DNA from: a virus
Taxonomy: Duplodnaviria; Caudoviricetes
IMG/VR virus record: IMGVR_UViG_3300032248_001448
Coordinates: 1 to 45,186 of that record
Direction: 5' to 3' (one strand)
Length of the DNA stretch: 45,186 nt
The notes beneath the pieces were generated by a model. It was not told where the DNA came from and searched no databases. It saw only the letters and a program-made list of their open reading frames with translations. Of the stretch, positions 5,587 through 32,438 are shown piece by piece (within the stretch, counting starts at the first letter, position 1; each line of letters opens with the position of its first letter). The translations under genes were made by a program, and so were the position numbers.

Positions 5587-6003
5587 ATGCTTAAAATATA
5601 TTGTCAATCTTGCGGAGCAAAATATGAATATTCTAATTCAAAACCAAATTTTTGTTCAAAATGTGGCACGAATTTAAATCAATTTTCAAATTATACAAAA
5701 GCGGAATTAATTGTTCCAGAAAATATAGAAGAAGAATTAGACTCATTAAAAGTTCCTAAAATAAATAATTTAGAAGTTGAAATATCTAAATCAGAACTAA
5801 TATCGGAAAAAATTTCTGATATTATAAGTTCTTCTCCAGAAGAAGAATATGAAGATTTTAAACAATTGATTGAGAATAATCAAACTTATCATACAGAAAA
5901 TGAAGAGCAATTTCTTAAAGATTTTTCAGAAGAAGCTGGCGCGCTAAGACCGAAAATAAGAGAGCATAAAACTAATGTCAAAAATAAAAACTCCAAATTT
6001 TGA
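5587..6003 (+). CDS. Zinc-ribbon protein with acidic C-terminal region
   Basis: YCQSCG...NFCSKCG (two CxxC), followed by a Glu-rich region. Confidence 0.75.
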   Translation: MLKIYCQSCGAKYEYSNSKPNFCSKCGTNLNQFSNYTKAELIVPENIEEELDSLKVPKINNLEVEISKSELISEKISDIISSSPEEEYEDFKQLIENNQTYHTENEEQFLKDFSEEAGALRPKIREHKTNVKNKNSKF

Positions 6004-6661
6004 AAATTATATTAAAGAAATCGACCAAGAAATATTAAAACGAAAAAATAAATGGACACTCACTGCAATTTCTTGGATGGATTTTAATGATGTCGCCCAA
6101 ATATTAAGATTTCATATTTATAAAAAATGGCATTTATACAATAGTAATAAACCTCTTACGCCCTGGATTAATAGAATTATAAGTAATCAAATTAAAAATT
6201 TAATTCGAAATAATTATAGCAATTACACTCGCCCATGCTTAAAATGCTCCGCCGCCGAAGGAGAAACTGGCTGCGCTATTTATCAAATCCAATGCAAAAA
6301 ATGCCCATTGTATAAAAATTGGGAGGAAAAAAAGAAAAATGCATATTGCACAAAAATTACATTTAGTCTAGAAAATCATAAACAAGAAATTGGGGATATA
6401 AAAGAAGAGTCTATGGATTTAGAGTCTTCGGTTAAAAATATACATACGAAGATACAATATTTCTTAAAACCTATAGAATGGAAAATTTATCAATATCTTT
6501 ATATACAATGCTTAGAAGAAGAAAAAGTAGCTAAACTCATGGGGTATAAAACAACGGAAAAGAACAGATCTGCAGGATATAAACAAATAAAAAATTTAAA
6601 AAAATCTATTTTTTTGAAAGTTAAAAAACATCTTTATAACGGAGACATAGATATTTTATGA
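5975..6661 (+). CDS. Phage RNA polymerase sigma factor, ECF-like, with Cys-rich insertion
   Basis: Region-2-like DFNDVAQILRFHIYKKWHLYN...LTPWINRIISNQIKNLIR. Region-4-like LKPIEWKIYQYLY...EEKVAKLMGY. CxxC-x8-C-x6-CxxC lies between them. Confidence 0.75.
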   Translation: MSKIKTPNFENYIKEIDQEILKRKNKWTLTAISWMDFNDVAQILRFHIYKKWHLYNSNKPLTPWINRIISNQIKNLIRNNYSNYTRPCLKCSAAEGETGCAIYQIQCKKCPLYKNWEEKKKNAYCTKITFSLENHKQEIGDIKEESMDLESSVKNIHTKIQYFLKPIEWKIYQYLYIQCLEEEKVAKLMGYKTTEKNRSAGYKQIKNLKKSIFLKVKKHLYNGDIDIL

Positions 6662-7752
6662 GCGAAGAAATTTTAATATTGACAGAAGAGCAGCAATTAA
6701 AATTATTAAAAGAATGGAACGATAGACCGAATAACCCGCCCTCTTTGGCGGAACTAGTAAAATTAGCCTTTCAAAGAGACGATTTAGACGGAAGAAGTAA
6801 AGAAGGGAAAGCTGTAAAACAATTTCTTGCTTCTAGACAAATTAAGCCTAAAAAAAGTCATGAATACGAAGCAAAAGGTTTAATAGAATTACATAACGAG
6901 CAGAAAGAGTATATCAGTAATAACTGTCATACCATGACAGGTTTAGAAATGGCCAAGATTCTTTTCAAGAACGAATCACTAACAAATTTGTCGCAAGAAA
7001 CTAGAAGCGTTTTAGAATACATGAAAAATATTCCTACGAATATAAAATTTAATAACATTGAAAACGAAAGTATTCCTACAGATGAATACAAGCCCCCAAA
7101 AAGCGAAGAAAGAACAATCGCTAAAATTAATAAATATATTCTTGACGGAATAGACAAAAATAAATTGACTCATAAACATAAAAAAGAAATTAATTCTTTA
7201 ATTGGATATATGAATACATATAGATTTTCTCATCAAATTAATCTTTATGACGACGAAAAAGATCGAGAACTTTTCGAAAGTAGTTTCGTTAGGTATACGT
7301 ATGATAAAAGCGACCTAACTCAAGAAGAAGTAGACCAATACATCGTTCTTTCTACAGAAGTAGTTATATCTTCTAATATACAGCAGACAATAAATGTTTT
7401 GCAAAATCAAATTGATATGGCCATTCAAGAGGACGGGAAAATTCCAATGGCACTTGTTGAAGCGAGTAATACTGCTAGAAAAGAATATAATGATTGCGTA
7501 AATCGCCAGCAAAAACTTCTTAGCGATCTTAAAGTCAAAAGAAGCGAAAAATTAAGCAAGCAAATAAAGGAAACTGCTTCGATCATAAATCTTGTCCAAA
7601 TGTGGAAAGAGGAAGATAATAGGCAAAAATTAATTAAAATGGCGGAAATGAGAAAGCAAATCGTAGAAAAAGAAATTGATAGATTATCTTCTATGGATGA
7701 AGTAAAATGTAAAATACTGGGCATTTCTAAAGACGAGATTTTAAATGGATGA
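6658..7752 (+). CDS. Hypothetical helical/coiled-coil protein (candidate terminase small subunit or packaging accessory)
   Basis: ATGA-coupled to both neighbours; HTH-like MTGLEMAKILF; C-terminal coiled coil; two genes upstream of terL. The function is a synteny guess. Confidence 0.45.
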   Translation: MSEEILILTEEQQLKLLKEWNDRPNNPPSLAELVKLAFQRDDLDGRSKEGKAVKQFLASRQIKPKKSHEYEAKGLIELHNEQKEYISNNCHTMTGLEMAKILFKNESLTNLSQETRSVLEYMKNIPTNIKFNNIENESIPTDEYKPPKSEERTIAKINKYILDGIDKNKLTHKHKKEINSLIGYMNTYRFSHQINLYDDEKDRELFESSFVRYTYDKSDLTQEEVDQYIVLSTEVVISSNIQQTINVLQNQIDMAIQEDGKIPMALVEASNTARKEYNDCVNRQQKLLSDLKVKRSEKLSKQIKETASIINLVQMWKEEDNRQKLIKMAEMRKQIVEKEIDRLSSMDEVKCKILGISKDEILNG

Positions 7753-8684
7753 GTGTTATATGCAAAGTCGATGGGAAAGAATTTAAGGACGAGAAAAGCC
7801 TTCATCTCGCCCTCAAGTCTTACGGGTTAAATAAAGAAAAATATTACCACAAGTATTATCCAAAAAAAGATTTTTTGACCGACGAAGTAATTAATTTTAA
7901 ATCAAAAGAACAATATTTTAATAATGATTTTAATCATAAAAATAATATGAAAAAATGGCTTAAAATTCAGCCGATAGAAAAAGCTCGAGAATATTGTAGG
8001 GAAATTCTTGTCAAAAGAAAAAAAGAAAAAAAAATAATATTTTCTCCATCTCAAGTAGAATTAAGAAGTATAATGAGCCCTTCAATTTTATTTTATAATA
8101 AAATTTTTAATAATTACTATGATCTTTGCGAGAGCCTAGAATTAAAAAATAAGTTTATGTCTCCAGATAATATATATAATCAATTTAAAAATAAATTATC
8201 TATTAAAGACACAATATATATTGATACTAGAGAGCAAAATTGGTTAAAATTTAATATACCATTTGAAATTAAAACCTTGCCCTATGGCGATTATACTTGC
8301 AATAATTATAATTGCAATTGCTATATAGAAAGAAAAAGTTTAAGCGATTTTATTAGTACTTTAAGTACGGGAAACATAAATAGATTTAATAATGAAATAT
8401 TAAAAGCAAAAAAAGATGGGGCTTATTTGATAGTAATCATTGAAGAGAAACTATCAAACGCTTTAAGCTTCAAACATCTTCCCCACATAAGCAAAAAAAT
8501 AAAGGTTACGCCTGAATTTATTTTTCATAACTTAAGAAGTTTAATGCAAAATTATGATAATTTACAATTTTTATTTGTAGACGGGAGAGAAGAAATGAAA
8601 AGAGTAATAGAGTCAATTTTTTCTAGCGAATGTTTTTATAAAAAAATAGACTTACAATTAGCATATGATATGAAAATTTTATGA
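7749..8684 (+). CDS. ERCC4/XPF-family nuclease with a degenerate N-terminal Zn-finger-like region
   Basis: IDTREQ, LPYGDY, IERKSLSDFIST and RFNNE match ERCC4 nuclease motifs; N-terminus CKVDGKEF...LHLAL. Confidence 0.8.
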   Translation: MSVICKVDGKEFKDEKSLHLALKSYGLNKEKYYHKYYPKKDFLTDEVINFKSKEQYFNNDFNHKNNMKKWLKIQPIEKAREYCREILVKRKKEKKIIFSPSQVELRSIMSPSILFYNKIFNNYYDLCESLELKNKFMSPDNIYNQFKNKLSIKDTIYIDTREQNWLKFNIPFEIKTLPYGDYTCNNYNCNCYIERKSLSDFISTLSTGNINRFNNEILKAKKDGAYLIVIIEEKLSNALSFKHLPHISKKIKVTPEFIFHNLRSLMQNYDNLQFLFVDGREEMKRVIESIFSSECFYKKIDLQLAYDMKIL

Positions 8685-13841: not shown

Positions 13842-14732
13842 ATGAAGCATTTTATTTATACAAATTTTACTAATGGCGGCAATGTGACGTCTCCACCTCC
13901 GCCTCCAGGAGGCGGATCATCGAGCGCAAAAATTATATTTTTAGGAGATAGCGGAATGCCTCCGTTGGCAGATACTGAAAATACTGCTAATAAAATAAAG
14001 CAAGAAGCGCCAGATTATGTGATACATTTAGGAGATGCAAATTATGAAAGTCCTCAAAAATTAAATACAAATTTTTTAAATTTTTGGCAAAATTATTTAA
14101 ATAAAATGTATTTTGTTTTTGGAAATCATGATTTGGATTATGATTATGGAGCCGGAATTATTGAAAATTTACCGCTTGTTAAAAATAATCTAACTCAACA
14201 AAAAATTAATAGTAAATTTTTATGCTATGATTTTAAGATTAATAATATTCATTTTTTTGCGTTTAACTCTGGCAATACATATTCGGGAGATTCATTGACC
14301 CAACAAAATGATCAATTTCTTAATTTAGAAAATCAATTCGAGGAAATGTTACCGAAAATTAGAAATTCTCAATATAAATGGAAAATTGTTTTAGTTCATA
14401 AACCGCCGTATACGAATGAATATACCCACAAACCAGGAGCGGGGCCACTTAGATTAGACTATAAAGCTGAAGGAGTAGATATAGTTATGAGCGCTCACTC
14501 GCATCTTTATGAAAAGATCAATATTAATAATATTTTTTATTTAATACAAGGACTTGGCGGTGCTGAAAAAAGATGTGGAAGTACTCCCTATTTAAATGGA
14601 ACAAATTTGAATTATTGTTTAAAAAATGCATATACAATACTTAACGTTTCGAATAATAATTTAGAATTTATAACGAAAAATATAGATGGCGAGATAATAG
14701 ACCAGTTTGGTTTAACAAAATTTTTAAGTTAA
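13842..14732 (+). CDS. Calcineurin-like metallophosphoesterase, purple acid phosphatase type
   Basis: GDSG, GDANY, GNHD, VHKPPY and AHSH match the five metal-ligand motifs. Confidence 0.88.
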   Translation: MKHFIYTNFTNGGNVTSPPPPPGGGSSSAKIIFLGDSGMPPLADTENTANKIKQEAPDYVIHLGDANYESPQKLNTNFLNFWQNYLNKMYFVFGNHDLDYDYGAGIIENLPLVKNNLTQQKINSKFLCYDFKINNIHFFAFNSGNTYSGDSLTQQNDQFLNLENQFEEMLPKIRNSQYKWKIVLVHKPPYTNEYTHKPGAGPLRLDYKAEGVDIVMSAHSHLYEKININNIFYLIQGLGGAEKRCGSTPYLNGTNLNYCLKNAYTILNVSNNNLEFITKNIDGEIIDQFGLTKFLS

Positions 14733-15361
14733 TGTTAAACGGCAAATCTATTAAACTTATTTTAGAGTTCGAAGTTGGTGGCGGAGAAAATTATTATAAT
14801 AAATTTTTAAAAAATCCAACTTGGCCAGGAGAGCAAAGTGGGATAACAATTGGCGTTGGTTATGATGCTGGATATGTAAATAAAACAGAATTTACAAATG
14901 ATTGGAAAGAATTAAATCAAAAAGACTTTAGCAGATTATATAAAGTCGTTGGAATAAAAGGTGTCGCCGCAAAAGATCATATTCGGGGGTTGAAAGATAT
15001 AGTTATACCTTGGGAATTAGGACTTAAAGTGTTCATGAATAAAACTGTAAATAAATTTTATAGTTTGGCTAAAAATACTTTTCCACATTTTGATAATCTT
15101 CCAGAAGATGCAAAAGGCGGGTTAGTAAGTTTAGTATTTAATAGAGGCGCAAATCTTGAAGGAGATAGACGCCGGGAGATGAAAAATATTTATGATATAA
15201 TGAATAAAAACGAAACCTTTGATCAAAAAATATTATCTCAAATTGCTGATCAAATTCGTAGTATGAAAAGAATATGGATTGGCGGGAGCATAGAAAAAGG
15301 GATGTCTCGGAGAAGAGACGCCGAAGCCAAAATAATTGAAGAAGCCGTCTCAACTATTTAG
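14732..15361 (+). CDS. Endolysin, lysozyme-fold muramidase (GH24/pesticin-C-like)
   Basis: LILEFE, WPGEQSGITIGVGYDAG, LVSLVFNRG, GMSRRRDAEA. Confidence 0.85.
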   Translation: MLNGKSIKLILEFEVGGGENYYNKFLKNPTWPGEQSGITIGVGYDAGYVNKTEFTNDWKELNQKDFSRLYKVVGIKGVAAKDHIRGLKDIVIPWELGLKVFMNKTVNKFYSLAKNTFPHFDNLPEDAKGGLVSLVFNRGANLEGDRRREMKNIYDIMNKNETFDQKILSQIADQIRSMKRIWIGGSIEKGMSRRRDAEAKIIEEAVSTI

Positions 15362-15867: not shown

Positions 15868-17415
15868 ATGAAAAAAAATAAATTTACGACTATATTTTCG
15901 AATATTCATTTGAAGCCGATTGTTAGCGCCGAAAAAGATAAATATTTATCTACGGCATCTATAAATCAATTAAAAAAATTTATTCCTGATATTAATATAG
16001 AAGAGAATATAGATTTATTACCCATAGCATTTGATGCGTGCGTTGTTAATAGAGTCAATAAAAATGGAGACGTTATCGATGCTTTGACTGCTTCAAAAAT
16101 AGCTAAAAATTTTATTAATAAACCAATTAATATAGAGCATAATAGAAATACTGTCGTAGGCTGCATATTAAATTATGGATTTACTGAATTTGGTACATCA
16201 AATAAAATTGAAGAAAAAGACATAGAAAAAATTAAAAAACCATTTAATATTACTTTAGGTGGATTAGTTTGGAAAGTAGTTAATCAAGATCTAGCCGATA
16301 AATTAGAAGAAGCTAATGATCCTACTAGCGAAAATTATATGAGCATTAGCGCCAGCTGGGAATTAGGATTTGATGAATTTAATATAGTATTATTAAATAA
16401 TAATGAAAAAAATATTGAAAATGGTCAAATTATTAGCGACGCAGAAGAAATTGAAAAATATGAAAATTCTTTAAAAGGCTTTGGAGGATCTGGCAAGGTA
16501 GACGAAAATAAATATATATATCGTCAAGTTTTAGGGAAAGTAATTCCTCTTGGAATAGGATTAACATTAAATCCAGCGGCAGATGTCAAAGGGGTTATTA
16601 CTGCTAAAGAAATTAATCCGATTTTAATTTCTGAAAATCCCTCTAAAGCCTCAGATGAAAATAATTGTTCCCAAAACGAACAAATAGATGTAAAGAAAGA
16701 GAGAATATATATGAAGATATCAAAACTTGAAGAAATCACGGATTCACTTCTTAAAGAAGTGACTGCTTCTGCGGTAATTGATTTTATTTCAGAAGAAATT
16801 AAAAAAGTAAACGATCAATATTTAGTTGAAAAAAATTCGAAAGAAAATGCGTTAAAAGATGCTTCTGAAAAAATAAATTCTGTTACAGCTGAATATGAAA
16901 ATGTAAAAAAACAATTAGAAGAAGTTAATAAAAAATTAGGCGATATCGAAAAAGAACAAGAAACCAAAGCTAAGCAAGAAGCTTTTAATATGAGAATGGC
17001 AGCTTTTGATGAAGAATACGACCTAGCCGATGAAGATCGTAAAGTTTTAGCCGAAGATATTAAAGACCTGAACGAAGAAGGCTTTGCTGCTTATAAAAAC
17101 AAAATGGCCGTGCTCATGAAAGAAAAAAATAAAGCTACAAAAAAATCCATGAAAGAAAAAGTAGATAAAGAAGATTTAAAAGATAAAGGCGCAGACGAAG
17201 ATAAAGAAGACAAAAACGGAAAAGTGATTAAATCCGCTATTGCTTCTGAAGAGGCTGCGCAACAAGTTTCTACAACCCAAGAGGTTGTCGAACAAGCTGT
17301 TGATAATGGATCAAAAGCTTCAACTGAAATACCAAATTCCGCTCCAGCTTCTGAGCCAAGCGTAAAAGAAAAATACGCCAGAGCTTTTAGTTTGGAAGGA
17401 TTTAATATAAAATAA
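15868..17415 (+). CDS. Prohead protease fused to a scaffolding protein
   Basis: N-terminal half has VNKNGD, INIEH (His) and SASWE (Ser), as in herpes-fold phage proteases. C-terminal half is a charged coiled coil. Lies upstream of the capsid genes. Confidence 0.8.
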   Translation: MKKNKFTTIFSNIHLKPIVSAEKDKYLSTASINQLKKFIPDINIEENIDLLPIAFDACVVNRVNKNGDVIDALTASKIAKNFINKPINIEHNRNTVVGCILNYGFTEFGTSNKIEEKDIEKIKKPFNITLGGLVWKVVNQDLADKLEEANDPTSENYMSISASWELGFDEFNIVLLNNNEKNIENGQIISDAEEIEKYENSLKGFGGSGKVDENKYIYRQVLGKVIPLGIGLTLNPAADVKGVITAKEINPILISENPSKASDENNCSQNEQIDVKKERIYMKISKLEEITDSLLKEVTASAVIDFISEEIKKVNDQYLVEKNSKENALKDASEKINSVTAEYENVKKQLEEVNKKLGDIEKEQETKAKQEAFNMRMAAFDEEYDLADEDRKVLAEDIKDLNEEGFAAYKNKMAVLMKEKNKATKKSMKEKVDKEDLKDKGADEDKEDKNGKVIKSAIASEEAAQQVSTTQEVVEQAVDNGSKASTEIPNSAPASEPSVKEKYARAFSLEGFNIK

Positions 17416-22103: not shown

Positions 22104-23174
22104 ATGGCAAGAAAAAGAGTAATTTATCAAAGCGAAGCCCTTTTCGTTGGACCAACGGGTTCAAATGCTACGGTGGCGGCTAATAATAAACAATTAAATA
22201 GAGTTCAAAGCGCGAATTATAATTTTGATATCGCTCGTAAAGATGTCAATCAATATGGTAATTTGGCGGCGATTGATCGTATTATCGTAGAGCAACCCAA
22301 GGTAGAATTAGATTTTACTTATTATGCAAATAGTGGTGAAAATGAAAAAAATATTGGCCTAGCCCTTTCTAACGGAGACTCCTCTGTTTCTGCTCTTTCT
22401 AATATTTTAACTGGTAAAGTAGATACAGACCCAGTTAATTTTTACATCTTAACTTCGCCAGAAGGTTCAGATGCAAATATCGCTGGATGGACTCAAACTG
22501 ATGGCCAAACGATTGGCGTAGGGAATGCTTCTATTACCTCTTATCAAATCGAAGCCTCAGTCGGAAATATTCCTACAGTTTCTGTCAAAGCTGAAGCGCT
22601 AAATATGAATTTTGTAAATGCAATCAGTGGCTCTGAAAATCCTGCAATTAATCCAGAAAATGGTTCAAGCTTAGGAATTGGATTCACTCTACCTACCCCT
22701 GTTAGCGGCTCAGGATACAGTGCATTGCGCCCAGGAGATATTACTGTCACGTTAAATAATGGGACCATTGGCTTAGTAGAAACCGACTTAAAAGTGCAAA
22801 AAGTTTCTGTTAGTTTGGATATTAAAAGAGATCCAATTCAAAAATTAGGCAGCAGATTTGCATTTACTAGAGAAGTAACGTACCCCGTCGTAGCAAAAAT
22901 GTCCGTAGATGCAATCATCGGTTCTGCTCAGGCCGCAACGCTATCAAATGTATTAAGCACTGATAATGATTATACAGTATCGATGAAATTAAACGCTCCG
23001 GGCTCTACGAGCGTAAGGGCTTTAAAATATACATTGAAAAAAGCCAAACTTGATTCCGAGCAATTTAGCTCTAAAATTGGCGATAATAAAAGCGTGTCTT
23101 TGACGTTCTCGACTCAAATCGGCGGCCCAAATGATACTGCTGCTGGTCTATTCATAGATGGTCCTAGCGCTTAA
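22104..23174 (+). CDS. Major tail (tube) protein
   Basis: Strong SD and a downstream terminator. RVQSANYNFDIARKDVNQYG and KVQKVSVSLDIKRDPIQKLG indicate a duplicated tube fold. Confidence 0.8.
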   Translation: MARKRVIYQSEALFVGPTGSNATVAANNKQLNRVQSANYNFDIARKDVNQYGNLAAIDRIIVEQPKVELDFTYYANSGENEKNIGLALSNGDSSVSALSNILTGKVDTDPVNFYILTSPEGSDANIAGWTQTDGQTIGVGNASITSYQIEASVGNIPTVSVKAEALNMNFVNAISGSENPAINPENGSSLGIGFTLPTPVSGSGYSALRPGDITVTLNNGTIGLVETDLKVQKVSVSLDIKRDPIQKLGSRFAFTREVTYPVVAKMSVDAIIGSAQAATLSNVLSTDNDYTVSMKLNAPGSTSVRALKYTLKKAKLDSEQFSSKIGDNKSVSLTFSTQIGGPNDTAAGLFIDGPSA

Positions 23175-25685: not shown

Positions 25686-28600
25686 ATGGCAGAAGGATCA
25701 CAAGACATCATTTTAAATGTAGGTGGAGACACTCGACAACTTGAGAGAGACATACAAAGAGTTGTATCTAATTCTAATTTAAATTTAAATACAAAAGGAT
25801 TTTCTCAGCCCTTAGGAAAAATTACCGGCCAACTGGGAGAATTTGAAAAATCTTTAGCTGCTTCTAATGCTCGAGTTATTGCGTTCGGCGTTTCGGCTGG
25901 AGCAATTTATGCTGTAGAAAAAGCTTTTTCAGAAATGATTAAAAGTACGCTTAGTGTAGAAAAATCTTTAGCAGAAATTAACACTATTCTATCGGTAAGT
26001 CAAAAAGAATTGAATAGCTTTGGAAATAATTTATTTGAATTAGCCAAAAATACAGGTCAAAGTTTTGATATCGTAGCAAAATCAGCGTTAGAATTTTCTC
26101 GTCAAGGGTTAGGAGTAGCGGAAACTTTAAAGAGAACAAATGATGCATTAATTTTAACTAGACTAAGCGGTATGGATGTAGTTAGCAGTACCGAGTCTAT
26201 AACAGCGGCTTTAAATTCTTTTAATCAGACTGCAATAAGCTCAAATGAGCTTATTAATAAATTAGTTGCTGTTGACAATGGCTTTTCTGTAAGTTCTGCT
26301 GATTTAGCTGAAGCGATTAAAAGAGTAGGAAGTTCTGCACAAGATGCTGGAGTAGGTTTAGACGAATTAATTGCGCTAGTCACTTCTGCCCAACAAATTA
26401 CCTCTCGAGGAGGATCTGTAATAGGAAATAGCTTTAAGACAATCTTTACGAGATTACAAAGACCCGAAGTTTTATCGGCTTTAGATGAATTAGGCGTAAA
26501 AACAAAAGACGCAGAAGGTAATATTATGCCTTTAATTCAAATATTAAGTCAACTATCTTCAAAATTTGAAAGTTTAACTGGCACACAAAGATCCCAAATT
26601 GCAGAATTAGTCGGCGGAGTGTTCCAAATTAATATTTTAAAAGCTTCATTAGGCGATTTATCCAAACAATATTCTATATATAGTCAAGCTTTAGAAACTT
26701 CCTCAGGAGCAACAGATGAAGCTAATAAGAGAAATGAAGCGTTAAATCAAACACTGGCGGCGACTCTAAATAAAACTCTAGCTAATTTAAGTAAATCTGC
26801 TTCAGAAATAGGAAATTTATCCTTGGGCCCAGCTATACAAAAAACTTTAGGTGGATTAAATTCGGCTTTAGAAAATTTTTCTACCAAAGGAGATGGAACA
26901 GATAGCCTTGGGTCTAAAATTGGTCAAGGAATAGCTAGAGGTTTAGGAAATTTTCTTGGTGGCCCTGGGATAGCTTTAGCTGTTGTAGGTTTGGCTAAAG
27001 TTTTCGAAAGATTGACTAATTATTCAAAAGATGCTTTCAAAAGTTTAAGCGGTTTGAATAATGCTTCTATGGAGCAGTCTCAAATACAATCACAAGTATT
27101 GAATATAATTGGTAAGAATCCTAAATTAATTGACCAAATAAATAAAGGAACTATCGACACAGCGGCTCTTCATAGAGAAATTTTATCTTTAATAGAACAA
27201 GAAACTGCTAATATGCAAAAGCAAATTTCTATTGCTGCTACATTGGCTAAAAGCTTATCTTTATCTGGAGTAGGATTAGCACAATCTGGGCCATTAAAGG
27301 GAACGGTTATTTCTAACAAAATAAAAGCTTATGGTCATATACCTAATTTTAGTTATGAACAAACCGAAATTTTAGGCGCAGCCATTGGAGGTTATAAAGC
27401 GGGAAACATTAAGCGAATGAATATCGCAGGAGAGGGAAGCGTTATTTATAATGATGCTGAATCTGTAGTAAAATTTCCAGGGGCAAGCCAACCAGCTATA
27501 ATTCCTCCAAAAAATAGCTCTGCAGGGCAAAATTATGGAAAACAATTTGAAAAACAAATTGGTTTTGACCCTTATAATTTTCAAGGATTTGTTCCTAATT
27601 TTGCATCAGAACAAAGAGCGAGCTCAAATAAAATAGTTTCTATTGCGAACGCTTTATATAGCGGGAAAATGGATAAAATTCCGGATTGGGTTACTAATAA
27701 AGAAGATATATCAAAAATTAATAAAACATTTAATGAATTAAAAACTAATCAAAAAACTAATTCTACTTCAATTAAAGTTGGAAGTTTATCTGAATTTCCA
27801 CTTTTAGCTTTAACTCGCGCAGGAAGTAAGCAGGGGTATACTTTTAGGCCTAAAAATGGGCCTGTTATAGATGTACTTTTCCCAGTTTTTCAATTTGATC
27901 AAAATTCAGCAGGATTTAAGCTCGATGATATCAAGGGAAATTTAGATGCAGCAATAGATAAATCAATAAAAGATTTTGCCGAAGCTATATATAAAACTAG
28001 AGACGTTGATCCTCCTGCGAATCTGCCAGGAACTATTGAGGAGGCGAAGAAACAATCCGAAGGTTTAAAAGGATCTATAGAAGGCAGTATTGGCGGAATT
28101 TTTGAATCTGCTTTTAGAGCTTCTTTCGGACAAGCCGTTAAAGCGAGCAAAGGTGGAACTTTTGACATACAAGATTTAGGACAAGCTGAAGATTTATATA
28201 AATTTTTTTCCCCAACTAATTTAAAAAAGATTAAGGGCCCAGCGGATTTTAAAAATTCAGATAGTAGTGAAAATAGAGAAAGCATGGGAGAGAAAATAAT
28301 TAAAACTGTTAGACCAGATTTAATGGAATTTTTGTCCAAAAAAAGAGCCGCGAACACACAATTAGCATTAGCCGCATTTAATGGGTTTATTCCTAATTTT
28401 TCCGCTTTAGAAGAAGCTGTTCAAAGAGAAAAAAAATCTTCTCCAAATAGCGCCCCAGAAATATTATGGTCTGATACTTTGGGGAGTTTAGTAGTTGCGA
28501 ATAGCAAACAAACAGCAAAATATGGGAAAAATGCAGATAGAATCATTCAAAATGATCATATAAATCAAGGACAATTAGCTTCTAGAAATAATTTAATGAT

Positions 28601-31600
28601 GACTGGAAGCGGAAAAGAAAAATATTTTAATAGAGGATTTATTCCGAATTTTGCTTCAACATCTTCCGATGACCAAGGAAGCATAATTTTAAATAATCAA
28701 ACAAATGCGAATAAAGTTTCTTCTGAATTAGAAAAATTTATTAGTAAATTAATTAGTTTAAATAAAAATACTGATCAAATTGATTTAGCATTAAAAGAAG
28801 TTGCAGAAAAATTTAAAATTACAAAAAACTATACAGATAGCATTAATGTAAGCTTATCAAAAGCTGAAGAATCTATCCCGCCAATTTTGCCAAAAAATGT
28901 TGGACTTACACAAAAAATTAAAGATAATGTATCGAAAGCATTTAATGACGAAGCCTTACCACAGAATATCCAAAATTTCAAAAGTAAATTAATTTTTGCG
29001 AGCTTTGGCTTGTCAATGATTGGCGGTTTTGCTTCTAATTTTGCTGGAGATAATAAAAAAGCGGCTCAAACGATTGATTCTTTTACTCAATCTGTAGGAA
29101 CAGCTTCTACTGCCATTGGCTTAATTCCTGGACCCGCCGGAATTGCTATTGGCTCATTGATCGGTATAGCTGGAGTAATGAATGCCCTAACTTCATATTT
29201 ATTTAGCAAAGCTCCAGATATAGAAAAATCTTTAGAGAAAATAAAGGATGAAAATTCTAATTTTGCAAATGGAACTCAAAAATATTCTACAGTTTTGCAA
29301 AAACTAACTGAAGCATATAGTAATCCAAAAACAAAAAGCTCAGATTTAGTTAAATTAAATAAAGAACTTTTAGACGCCGCTAGAGAAATACCATCAGCAT
29401 ATAGATTGCAACTTTTAGCTATACAAGATAATACAAAATTACAAGAAGAAATTACTAAGATACAGAAAGATTTAATACAAAAGCAAAAAGGCTTAGAATT
29501 TGCTGCAAAAACTCAATCTGCGATTGATTCTAATGTCCCTGATAATTTTTTAAGATTTTTTACAGAAGCAGCGAAAGGCATTTTTGGTGGCGCCGATAAT
29601 ATTATACAAAAAATGGGAGGAAATTTAACTTCGATATCTACTACTGGAAATATTATTGGTCGCGCAGCAGAATTTGCTGGGATTGAAAATAAAATTACTC
29701 CATTAATAGGAAATATATTAGAAAATATTTTTCAGGATGCAAGATCTACGCTATTAAAAACTAATCTAGCCGGTCAAACTGCTGCCGCAGGAGTTGTCGG
29801 ATCATTTTCAAAAGAGGGCTTAAATAAATTTGAAGAACTTTTTAGAAATCCTAAAGAAATTAATAGTTTGAGAAACTCATCTGGCGCAGATTTTATTAAT
29901 AAAATGCAAAGAGATTTTGGCTTAGATAAAAATGTGTCAGAAGTTTTAAGAAACGCCAGTCCAGAAGACATCAAAAGGTTAAGAGAGCAAATTATTAGAT
30001 TGGGATCAGATTCTTCTAAAACTGCAGAAGTTATGAAAAAAACTGAGGCAGCAAGACAAGAATTAAATAAGCAAATAACCGAAGAAAAAAAGAATATAGA
30101 TCTCGCCAAAAGCTCTGTGGAAAGATTTAAAGAGGCCTTAGTAGCTTTAGCTCAAAGCGCAATAGAATTTCGATCTTATCGAGAAAAATTTAATCAGCAG
30201 TCCGTGTCGAATAAAAATTTACTAGACATCGAAAAAGCGAAAGGGCTAGTAGATTATCAAAAACCATTTTTAAATTCTTTTGAAGAAGCAAAATTAACCT
30301 CTTCTATAGAAGAGCTTATGAGGCGGCAAGATTTCGTAAATGAAGCACAAACAATAAAAAATAATACAAATGAAAATTTAATGAAAACAGCAATGGCTTC
30401 ATTAGGCGGGATGAAAGGCAAAGTCGAAGATGATAAATATAATGAAGTTTTAACTAATTTAAGTAAAATTAATACTACTAACTCTGGAGAAAATGTAGCA
30501 AGAGAGATATCGTCTTCATTAGATAAACTTGGAAAAGATTTTACAAAAGGGGATAGAGAAAAGCTTAATACAGATCTTAGATCAAATTTAGATAAGCAAA
30601 ATCAGCAATTAATAGACTTAAATCAGAAAAATGCACAAGCTAACGCAATAGCAAATGCCCAACTTCAAGTTCAAAAAGCCATGGCTTCCAGGGATGTTGA
30701 CCGCGCCGCTTTTGGAGGGCAATCCGCATTTGGGTTTCAAGATTTGAGAGGAGATAGACAAAGTTTACTCGATAGAATTAAACAAGATAAAATGGCTCAA
30801 GCCGCTTTTAATGCAGAACGAGGAGGATTTAATTCGTCGCTTTCTGGAGGTCAAACTCCAGGATTTCAAACTGGATTGTATAAAATGATAGCAGATCAGC
30901 TAGGAGGATTTGCTCCAGGGGAAGAAAGAGGAGCTTCTCGAATTAGAGAAGCAATGATATCTAGTAGAACAAATGACATCTTATATCAAGGAAGCACTTT
31001 AAGACAAGCAATTTATGAGAGTAATAGAATTTATGATTCAAAAGGACAATATGGCGGACAGTTAATGTTAAGCTCAGGCCAAAGTGCTATGTTAGATTTA
31101 TTAAATTCTAGGATGTCTCGCGCCAAACAAATTGCCGCGACTCAAGTAGACGAGGCTCTAAAAACTGGAAAAGCGACTTCTGAATTACCATTAAATGTCC
31201 AAGGAATGGCTAATGACGTAAAAACTATCACAGGACTATTGCAACAAATATCAGGAAATATGAATAATACTATTTCTTCTGGTATACGACAGGCAATTAA
31301 AGATAGCATTAGCAACTATTTATTAGGGCTCAATCCTTCAAATGCAGTGGATATAGGTAATAACAATATTAAGGGGGCTCAAACAAATGCTGATTTTGTA
31401 GAAAATATTGGGAACAAAAAAATAGATATATTCAACGCGTTAAGCTCTAAAGTTATAAATGAAGCCAACTTAAAAGAAGAAATGTCGAGGACAACGGATT
31501 TAAGGCAGAATATGTTAAATGCAAATGAAAGTTTAGGCAAATGGATCGAAACGCAAGTTAAAAATGCTGTCGCTCAAAATAAACCAATAATGAGTTTAGA

Positions 31601-32438
31601 GGAGCTCACAGAGCAAGAAAAGAAAAAAAATTCTTCTAAAAGTTCAGCTTTGCAAAATCTTACGAAAGATACTGGATCAGTTCAATATCAAGCTTTCGAA
31701 CAATACATCGAGAATGCTCAAAAAATTCAAGAATTACAGCAACAAATTAAAGGCAGTTTAGATTTATTGCAACAAAAACAACAAGAAATACAACAAGAAA
31801 TATCAAAGAACTTGGGTAAAGAAGGCGCCCCGTCATTGAATCAAGAAAATAAAAATCTAACTTCGAGTGGAAACATGATAAATCGAACAGTCATGCCTAA
31901 TGGACAAGTAATCATTGGTTATACTGGCGCTCAACCAAAAGCGCAGTCAAATTCTGGAACGAATAATGATTTTGAGCGCTTGGCTTCTATAATTCAAAGA
32001 GTAATTCAAGCTCCTACTCCTCAATTACAAAATAATAGCAGTCAACAAGACATTAAATCTTTAAATAAGGATATTTCAAATCTTTCTTCTGCTATTAAAA
32101 CTAGTTTCAATAGAAATACTCAACCCGAAAATGTTAATGTAGACGGGAATATTAATGTTTCTCCTTTAGCTGTAGAAGGAAGTGTAGCGGTTAATTTAAC
32201 TGCCCCCACATTTAAAATTGAAATTGCTGATAGTGATTTAGAGAAAACTAAACAAGAAATTGAAAAAAACTTTGATCAAAAATTAAAAGAAATGTCTCAA
32301 TCAATTTTAGCTCAAGTTCAAAAAGGAGTTGCCGAAAGTTTGAGACAATCTATTGGTCGCGCAACAGGAAAAGAATTACCAGCTACTACGGACAATCCAT
32401 TTAGAAATTATGGAGTGGGTAGATCTTTCATAGGATAA
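25686..32438 (+). CDS. Tail tape measure protein (TP901-type core) with an internal modular block
   Basis: 2250 aa. Core motifs ALEFSRQG, DLAEAIKRVGSSA, GSVIGNSFKTIFTRL and LDELGV. Gly/Ala-rich hydrophobic helices and long coiled coils. Confidence 0.93.
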   Translation: MAEGSQDIILNVGGDTRQLERDIQRVVSNSNLNLNTKGFSQPLGKITGQLGEFEKSLAASNARVIAFGVSAGAIYAVEKAFSEMIKSTLSVEKSLAEINTILSVSQKELNSFGNNLFELAKNTGQSFDIVAKSALEFSRQGLGVAETLKRTNDALILTRLSGMDVVSSTESITAALNSFNQTAISSNELINKLVAVDNGFSVSSADLAEAIKRVGSSAQDAGVGLDELIALVTSAQQITSRGGSVIGNSFKTIFTRLQRPEVLSALDELGVKTKDAEGNIMPLIQILSQLSSKFESLTGTQRSQIAELVGGVFQINILKASLGDLSKQYSIYSQALETSSGATDEANKRNEALNQTLAATLNKTLANLSKSASEIGNLSLGPAIQKTLGGLNSALENFSTKGDGTDSLGSKIGQGIARGLGNFLGGPGIALAVVGLAKVFERLTNYSKDAFKSLSGLNNASMEQSQIQSQVLNIIGKNPKLIDQINKGTIDTAALHREILSLIEQETANMQKQISIAATLAKSLSLSGVGLAQSGPLKGTVISNKIKAYGHIPNFSYEQTEILGAAIGGYKAGNIKRMNIAGEGSVIYNDAESVVKFPGASQPAIIPPKNSSAGQNYGKQFEKQIGFDPYNFQGFVPNFASEQRASSNKIVSIANALYSGKMDKIPDWVTNKEDISKINKTFNELKTNQKTNSTSIKVGSLSEFPLLALTRAGSKQGYTFRPKNGPVIDVLFPVFQFDQNSAGFKLDDIKGNLDAAIDKSIKDFAEAIYKTRDVDPPANLPGTIEEAKKQSEGLKGSIEGSIGGIFESAFRASFGQAVKASKGGTFDIQDLGQAEDLYKFFSPTNLKKIKGPADFKNSDSSENRESMGEKIIKTVRPDLMEFLSKKRAANTQLALAAFNGFIPNFSALEEAVQREKKSSPNSAPEILWSDTLGSLVVANSKQTAKYGKNADRIIQNDHINQGQLASRNNLMMTGSGKEKYFNRGFIPNFASTSSDDQGSIILNNQTNANKVSSELEKFISKLISLNKNTDQIDLALKEVAEKFKITKNYTDSINVSLSKAEESIPPILPKNVGLTQKIKDNVSKAFNDEALPQNIQNFKSKLIFASFGLSMIGGFASNFAGDNKKAAQTIDSFTQSVGTASTAIGLIPGPAGIAIGSLIGIAGVMNALTSYLFSKAPDIEKSLEKIKDENSNFANGTQKYSTVLQKLTEAYSNPKTKSSDLVKLNKELLDAAREIPSAYRLQLLAIQDNTKLQEEITKIQKDLIQKQKGLEFAAKTQSAIDSNVPDNFLRFFTEAAKGIFGGADNIIQKMGGNLTSISTTGNIIGRAAEFAGIENKITPLIGNILENIFQDARSTLLKTNLAGQTAAAGVVGSFSKEGLNKFEELFRNPKEINSLRNSSGADFINKMQRDFGLDKNVSEVLRNASPEDIKRLREQIIRLGSDSSKTAEVMKKTEAARQELNKQITEEKKNIDLAKSSVERFKEALVALAQSAIEFRSYREKFNQQSVSNKNLLDIEKAKGLVDYQKPFLNSFEEAKLTSSIEELMRRQDFVNEAQTIKNNTNENLMKTAMASLGGMKGKVEDDKYNEVLTNLSKINTTNSGENVAREISSSLDKLGKDFTKGDREKLNTDLRSNLDKQNQQLIDLNQKNAQANAIANAQLQVQKAMASRDVDRAAFGGQSAFGFQDLRGDRQSLLDRIKQDKMAQAAFNAERGGFNSSLSGGQTPGFQTGLYKMIADQLGGFAPGEERGASRIREAMISSRTNDILYQGSTLRQAIYESNRIYDSKGQYGGQLMLSSGQSAMLDLLNSRMSRAKQIAATQVDEALKTGKATSELPLNVQGMANDVKTITGLLQQISGNMNNTISSGIRQAIKDSISNYLLGLNPSNAVDIGNNNIKGAQTNADFVENIGNKKIDIFNALSSKVINEANLKEEMSRTTDLRQNMLNANESLGKWIETQVKNAVAQNKPIMSLEELTEQEKKKNSSKSSALQNLTKDTGSVQYQAFEQYIENAQKIQELQQQIKGSLDLLQQKQQEIQQEISKNLGKEGAPSLNQENKNLTSSGNMINRTVMPNGQVIIGYTGAQPKAQSNSGTNNDFERLASIIQRVIQAPTPQLQNNSSQQDIKSLNKDISNLSSAIKTSFNRNTQPENVNVDGNINVSPLAVEGSVAVNLTAPTFKIEIADSDLEKTKQEIEKNFDQKLKEMSQSILAQVQKGVAESLRQSIGRATGKELPATTDNPFRNYGVGRSFIG
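27333..28652 (+). repeat. Four dispersed G-[HF]-[IV]-P-N-F peptide motifs in the tape measure
   Basis: In-frame at 27333, 27585, 28383 and 28635 (spacing 252, 798, 252 nt). Confidence 0.9.

Follow-up and report, generated by a model that had tools for sequence, protein, structure and literature searches.

The DNA analysed here is a linear virus record, 45,186 bases long (IMG/VR record IMGVR_UViG_3300032248_001448, hereafter the window), which is estimated to be ~30% complete and carries a head-tail module with terminase, capsid and tail genes. The subject of this study is a three-module block inside its tail tape measure protein. The gene encoding this protein (25686..32438, + strand, 2250 amino acids) is the longest open reading frame (ORF) in the window and lies downstream of the terminase and capsid genes. 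It belongs to the TP901-type tail tape measures, with matches in PHROGs and a match to TIGR01760 above cut-off (E 6e-39). The PhageMin_Tail domain (PF10145, E 1.4e-30) covers residues 119–307 (26040..26606, + strand) and is part of the conserved backbone. The tail tube and tip genes near the tape measure gave no family match and owe their identities to position.

A preliminary description of this DNA had placed four motifs at residues 550, 634, 900 and 984 of the tape measure, between two hydrophobic segments. We confirmed all four: GHIPNFS (motif 1, 27333..27353), GFVPNFA (motif 2, 27585..27605), GFIPNFS (motif 3, 28383..28403) and GFIPNFA (motif 4, 28635..28655), all on the + strand. They are the only matches to G.[IV]PNF in all six frames of the window, with a chance expectation in the tape measure of 0.002. 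The block had been delimited as 27333..28652; its start is correct, but the last motif reaches 28655. Spacings of 84, 266 and 84 residues between the motifs define modules A (27354..27584), B (27606..28382) and C (28404..28634), all on the + strand.

The block is flanked by hydrophobic regions, as judged from hydropathy only. The first (residues 419–441; 26940..27008, + strand; Kyte-Doolittle peak 1.52) is a candidate membrane span ahead of the cassette. The second, glycine-rich region (residues 1102–1173; 28989..29204, + strand; peak 1.79) holds candidate spans after it, and a weaker hydrophobic stretch is found at residues 514–532. Among 160 relatives with four motifs, median peak hydropathy is 1.84 before the block, 1.0 inside it and 1.65 after it. 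The peak ~119 residues ahead of motif 1 is conserved, exceeding 1.6 in 85% of these relatives, and past the last motif the peak exceeds 1.4 in 91% and 1.6 in 57%. The frame is fixed: hydrophobic stretch, motif, A, motif, slot, motif, C, motif, hydrophobic stretch.

The modules had been described as globular units that break the helical character of the tape measure, and this is borne out by an AlphaFold2 model of the cassette consisting of three compact alpha/beta units, with a predicted local distance difference test score (pLDDT) mostly between 70 and 94. Confidence is low at motifs 1–3, short strands are predicted at motifs 3 and 4, and the mutual arrangement of the modules is without confidence (predicted template modelling score, pTM, 0.49). 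The block contains 22 prolines in 441 residues, compared with 36 in the remaining 1809 residues of the protein.

Module A, the conserved opening module, is an alpha/beta unit of no known family. It has 22 invariant columns in 17 sequences. A search of the ESM Atlas with A yielded only leads under 0.8. Module C closes the cassette and, on comparison with relatives, follows the backbone lineage. The modules had also been called mutually dissimilar. A, B and C indeed show no likeness by BLAST or in a shuffle test (p 0.09), with the reservation that A and C share an opening consisting of a helix, a beta-hairpin and a G-V-Y-N-x-x-E-like stretch. A profile of C matches A segments weakly (best E 0.007), which is a hint only, and profile comparisons of A with C, or of either with the C-terminal module of relatives described below, were not significant.

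Exchange of the middle slot and the nature of the joint

A search with the whole block returned 606 tape-measure-sized proteins, of which the best 120 were analysed. An unfiltered search with A alone returned 403 representatives (50% clusters, E ≤ 0.001), of which the best 150 were analysed; in most of these 150, A lies near residues 540–640 of a long protein. DNA of relatives was taken from 125 loci, and pooling gave 334 distinct sequences. The set obtained with the block is enriched for close B sequences, since it was collected using the block itself. Under the strict pattern, 85 of the 120 block-search proteins carry four motifs, and the 136 additional proteins from the A search carry 0 to 15, some of them being fragments. 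The 759 inter-motif segments of 30–700 residues fall into 109 BLAST clusters. We found no match in cultured phages. Five matches in prokaryote genome contigs came from metagenome-assembled genomes labelled Proteobacteria or Flavobacteria; four are shorter than 4 kb, and the contigs are probably mis-binned.

The ends of the cassette are stable. C is present in 270 of 283 near-complete proteins and is the last module in 266, and A comes first in at least 271 of the 283, a count that is circular because A was the bait. A minimal state is seen in the locus L102 (8873-13969), which was found via the backbone and has C alone between two worn motifs, without A or B. Exactly four PN[FY] sequences, all within the block, occur in 14 of 14 backbone-clade proteins checked, even where the G, F or I of the motif has drifted. 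An apparent variation of motif number among close relatives was rejected as an artefact of the strict pattern. In 206 of the 334 relatives the tape measure also has, once or twice, a C-terminal module of the form 'GG..DDVPAML..GEYV', which is absent from the window tape measure.

Several relatives depart from the simple layout. The giant tape measures P0238, P0196 and P0203 (4,100–5,000 residues) have 10–15 motifs, and L003:8001-13150 is of the same multi-motif type, cut at the contig end; most segments of these giants have no family and form a pool of uncharacterised domains. A diverged second module A, bordered by worn joints, lies far downstream of the array in P0130, P0132, P0137, P0141 and P0151. 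The tape measures P0014, P0024, P0028 and P0029 additionally carry PF01832, which we take to be a glucosaminidase family.

The content of the middle slot follows the backbone far less closely than module A does. While 212 of the 334 sequences have the backbone, A and a B-family domain, 87 have the backbone and A without one. Across the 212 proteins, pairwise identity in A follows that in the backbone with a rank correlation of 0.60, compared with 0.20 for B. Among 249 pairs with backbones at least 95% identical, B is less than 35% identical in 29%; the pairs in this swap analysis overlap and are not independent. The backbones nearest to that of the window come with distant B sequences, and distant backbones with close ones. 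P0039 has a backbone 88% identical to that of the window, yet BLAST finds no match to B, and in P0017 the corresponding values are 87% for the backbone and 30% for B. P0006–P0009 and P0011–P0013 have backbones 56–61% identical and B 47–50% identical. In trees of 34 hand-picked rows, a 16-member backbone clade (support 100/98) requires 7 changes on the B tree, of which at least 5 are forced by starred branches; the B tree carries a long-branch warning.

The edges of the exchanged segment lie at the motifs. In 187 swapped pairs, identity of 0.93–1.0 just ahead of motif 2 falls to 0.10–0.14 just past it and recovers at motif 3. The drop begins seven residues past the start of motif 2, and 169 unswapped pairs have no such fall. 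Sharp identity edges alone do not prove a crossover at the motif. Third-position identity across A and C is 0.63–0.81 in swapped pairs (16 pairs) and 0.83–0.90 in unswapped pairs (22 pairs), and the lower value in swapped pairs fits homologous recombination in the conserved flanks. We conclude from these comparisons of sequences that slot content has been traded between phage lineages and expanded into arrays in other relatives. The exchange very probably proceeds via ordinary homologous recombination in the conserved DNA of A and C. The modules had been proposed to be interchangeable, which holds for the middle slot only, A and C being fixed end pieces. Likewise, where both the content between motifs and the number of motifs might have varied between conserved flanks, content varies and the number is constant in the 14 backbone-clade proteins checked.

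The motif itself had been considered as a possible recombination junction, a role that does not agree with its spelling. The 319 motif copies in 75 loci have 175 different 18-nt spellings, the most frequent accounting for 37 copies. Their codon use is near background except for a CCT bias at the proline, and at motif 2 the members of swapped pairs agree in only 0.61 of third positions. At the DNA level, the copies make up a family of 25-nt direct repeats with 72–88% identity. Each of the 307 distinct contexts in which the motif occurs in 2.1 Mb of loci belongs to a tape-measure-like ORF, where any ORF with two or more motifs was counted as tape-measure-like. The residue after PNF is alanine in 52% and serine in 22%. 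By eye, a comparable joint, G-x-[IV]-P-x-[FY]-A-x-G-G, can be made out at the border of the 'DDVPAML..GEYV' module of relatives. Judged by the spellings of the motif, selection acts on it at the peptide level, around a P-N-F core, and it is not a DNA recombination site.

Module B, other cargo and the surrounding genes

Module B is a basic domain (median net charge +12) with a folded core at residues 692–885. In 225 B sequences (effective depth 71), G803, F806, E807, D827, D/E854, K856 and K870 are kept at 97–99%, and E807, D827, D/E854 and K856 are kept in 99% of weighted sequences, at a median pairwise identity near 23%. Modelled alone, B reaches a pLDDT of 86 and a pTM of 0.77. The ratio of nonsynonymous to synonymous substitution rates (dN/dS) is 0.27 for B (22 overlapping pairs), 0.21 for A and C and 0.07 for the backbone. 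These values identify B as an intact, folded, basic domain that is evidently under purifying selection.

PD-(D/E)XK nucleases, which cleave nucleic acids in a metal-dependent manner and are built on an alpha-beta-beta-beta-alpha-beta core, have a glutamate on a helix, then an aspartate and a D/E-x-K element on a strand, followed by a helix with a lysine. The invariant residues of B follow this order. The E-D-(D/E)xK pattern is present in 162 of 171 B segments, a circular count in that the pattern was drawn from the B family, and in 0 of 286 shuffled segments. A related segment cluster (profile comparison, probability 97%) spells the D/E-x-K element as EAK. In the model, the strands that complete the central sheet of B seem to precede the E helix in sequence, and a permutation is possible.

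Several searches weigh against a nuclease assignment, in that fold, profile and family searches placed B with no nuclease. Fold searches with the cassette model and with B alone gave no significant match, and a permuted core could escape them. Against solved structures, searches by sequence and by profile turned up only weak, unrelated matches, including one of B to Gs-alpha (E 0.03) that we take as chance, and the ESM Atlas gave nothing usable for B. Stand-alone B proteins of ~106–480 residues were not found in word-limited searches that left out longer fusions other than tape measures. From residue conservation, we hold with good confidence that B is a metal-dependent enzyme, and we lean towards a nuclease that belongs to the PD-(D/E)XK kind or comes close to it. 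'Nuclease' is no more than likely for B, and PD-(D/E)XK is a candidate family.

Other cargo in the slot of relatives can in part be named, in line with the effector modules proposed in the preliminary description: some of it matches cytoplasmic enzyme families. A GNAT match is found in the slot of L003 (E 5e-5, above cut-off) and L074 (below cut-off), and staphylococcal nuclease (SNase) matches above cut-off are found in L004, P0210 and P0216. P0132 has a DUF7178 match in the slot, other relatives have weak PGDYG, cytidylyltransferase and WYL matches, and one two-member cargo cluster contains, by eye, an HExxH-like stretch. Only 5 of 38 scanned locus segments have a Pfam match at E <0.01.

The gene after the tape measure begins 4 nt past its stop and is common to L087, L006 and L008, which have other B types. 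Comparison of flanking genes across relatives revealed no immunity gene beside the tape measure. Gene order near the tape measure varies among relatives (L043:14699-20230; L097:4771-5883; L046:2939-4177). In one such difference, checked in L043 only, the downstream genes are on the opposite strand; in another, the homologue of 22104-23174 is inverted, with a second, distant copy close by. Directly upstream of the capsid genes lies a probable head protease-scaffold fusion (15868..17415, + strand), a role inferred from position and residues: it has no family match in library scans, and its H91, S161 and S163, invariant in 8 sequences, form a His/Ser set typical of a head-maturation protease.

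Elsewhere in the window, an ERCC4-type nuclease gene (7749-8684) overlaps the beginning of the gene for the large terminase subunit, and a phage sigma-70-like factor (5975-6661) is encoded upstream of the packaging genes. A metallophosphoesterase gene and then a pesticin-type lysozyme-like gene (13842-15361) lie between the terminase and head genes. The first part of the window encodes a DUF6734 protein (595-1401) and the Peptidase_S74 chaperone end of a tail-fibre-like gene (168-563). At the other end, an ORF open at the contig end (43972-45186) has low-complexity GYASTA-type repeats, with a repeated block near its end.

A proposed delivery model, known systems and rival explanations

We propose that the tape measure has a built-in swappable cargo slot which would deliver enzymes into the host upon ejection, a reading to which we give a probability of about 0.6. 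The tape measure would run through the tail and leave it by ejection when a cell is infected, with the block brought to the cytoplasmic side by the hydrophobic stretches around it; by analogy with other tape measures, we consider ejection and this placement probable. B would then act early, with host DNA, host defences or competing phages as targets. Because the joint recurs once per module and P-N-F is kept whatever its neighbours, we suggest that some protein partner recognises the peptide. Cleavage at PNF, by a protease or by the protein itself, that frees each module has somewhat less than an even chance, and a chaperone or packing contact that leaves the cargo tethered is a plausible, rather less favoured role. 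Lambda gpH and T5 pb2 are proteolytically processed tape measures. The fullest form of the proposal is tentative and, taken as a whole, unlikely: across a widespread family of large uncultured phages, every PNF-fenced module would be cut free after ejection, so that the tail would carry a freely replenished supply of early effectors (nucleases, acetyltransferases and many domains of unknown fold), B would be an enzyme whose nuclease fold is novel or permuted, and the joint might be read or cut by A or C.

Parts of this arrangement have precedents, which we compare on the basis of portions of the cited papers. Phage polyvalent proteins are large virion-delivered polypeptides in which unrelated conflict domains are strung together and are predicted to be separated on deployment (PMC5512222), and GNAT is named among their domains (PMC7824862). 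The relatives resemble them in having several unrelated effector domains, GNAT included, in variable architectures, the window tape measure itself having one cargo. The carrier here, in contrast, is a tape measure, a word ('tape') absent from the main text of PMC5512222, and the domains are fenced by one short peptide, whereas polyvalent proteins are processed by embedded metallopeptidase (MPTase) domains. The hub domains zincin MPTase, ArdC-N, MuF and SNF2 ATPase had no Pfam, NCBIfam or PHROG match in the window tape measure, and library scans found no peptidase family match in it. We do not assign the system to the polyvalent, polymorphic-toxin or PD-(D/E)XK families. Polymorphic toxins, in which a variable C-terminal toxin is encoded next to its cognate immunity gene, differ in that the cargo here is internal and the next gene is shared by relatives with other B types. 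The order of invariant residues is what B has in common with PD-(D/E)XK nucleases, from which it is set apart by the lack of a structural or profile match.

Tape measures with enzyme domains are also described. Thermus phage P23-45 gp96 is a tape measure fused to the virion RNA polymerase (PMC10770324) and, as predicted here, brings a cytoplasm-acting enzyme into the cell; unlike the internal, swappable and expandable slot with its repeated joints, it has a single fixed N-terminal enzyme that stays in the full-length virion protein. Motif 3 of the mycobacteriophage TM4 tape measure and related cell-wall hydrolase motifs are optional enzyme domains that vary among phages (PMC1796659). They are embedded in tape measures as well, but act on peptidoglycan and have no delimiting peptide in the text drawn on, whereas the cargo here looks cytoplasmic (nuclease-like, GNAT, SNase). 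The lactococcal TP901-1 tape measure has the same N-terminal family, TIGR01760, and two hydrophobic regions, the stretch between which is predicted to be cytoplasmic (PMC5099701), a source that itself doubts a membrane role of these regions; that stretch has 129 residues, compared with ~660 residues and three folded modules here. Lambda gpH is cut to gpH* and gpHC by an unknown protease and then ejected (PMC12617516). It thus offers a precedent for a tape measure that is cut before ejection, and differs in having, in the portion drawn on, one cut near the C terminus at an unknown site and no enzyme cargo. In the literature searched, which covered few subscription papers, we found no description of a PNF-fenced tape measure slot, nor the string GFIPNF, and a peptide-fenced swappable slot is apparently undescribed in print.

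Four other explanations have to be weighed against delivery of enzymes. B could lack catalytic activity and serve as a DNA-binding or scaffolding domain, a pilot by which the incoming genome is pulled or shielded; the motifs would then be joints for folding or packing and would stay uncut. Such a pilot would suit a basic B with no nuclease fold match, the short predicted strands at motifs 3 and 4, the lack of an immunity gene and the enzyme domain kept in full-length gp96 (PMC10770324). However, invariant E, D, D/E, K and K at ~23% median identity are typical of an active site, GNAT and SNase matches occupy the same slot in relatives, and L102, without A and B, indicates that B is not a core injection part; we consider the pilot improbable. 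B might instead be a selfish, in-frame homing-type endonuclease that cuts rival alleles in mixed infections and is copied by repair via the A and C flanks. Nuclease-like residues and the spread of B across backbone lineages are in keeping with homing, as is the reduced synonymous identity that swapped pairs show in A and C, which is expected from co-conversion. Empty sites are nevertheless missing, as none of 297 A-to-C intervals is shorter than 60 residues, the shortest being 172; the catalytic-type residues show no decay, the slot also holds non-nuclease cargo, and stand-alone B was not found in searches of limited sensitivity. The cassette differs from an intein or homing endonuclease further in having no Hint match and alpha/beta models for A and C. 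We therefore regard homing as quite unlikely.

The remaining two explanations concern the joint, and we give them still less weight. The preliminary description had named the 15868 protein as a candidate for cutting the motifs, and the cassette would then be a polyprotein processed by this head protease during assembly. The invariant His and Ser of that protein, the position of motifs 1–3 in low-confidence, probably exposed linkers and the cutting of lambda gpH during assembly (PMC12617516) would all be compatible with this. We found no link between the 15868 protein and the motif, though: the motif is in no head protein of the window and, within the loci, in no ORF other than tape-measure-like ones. 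Lambda gpH is cut before tail-head joining, and by an unknown enzyme (PMC12617516), and four cuts in mid-ruler before ejection would presumably break the chain inside the tube. Processing by the 15868 protein is thus very unlikely. A DNA site for site-specific, integron- or shufflon-like cassette exchange, with the peptide as a by-product, would account for swap edges that coincide with motifs, for the 25-nt repeat family and for one spelling shared by 37 copies. It is already largely refuted by the 175 spellings, by third positions near background (0.61 at motif 2 when pairs are swapped) and by the persistence of the amino acids PNF while the rest drifts. In addition, no recombinase was found among the 40 ORFs covered by library scans, and contigs from three runs of one study supported no excised form. 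The contig of one relative does match on either side of B, with different sequence in the middle, but over 21 letters only, and was not counted.

Tape measures are usually treated as rulers and DNA channels with an occasional fixed enzyme. In a large phage family that shares one standard slot, bounded by a defined joint of seven residues, domain borders would be readable directly from sequence. The roughly one hundred segment clusters, mostly without a known family, are candidates for effectors that act early against bacterial hosts or host defences. The old question of what cuts tape measures, where, and whether it matters would become testable by one precise mutation.

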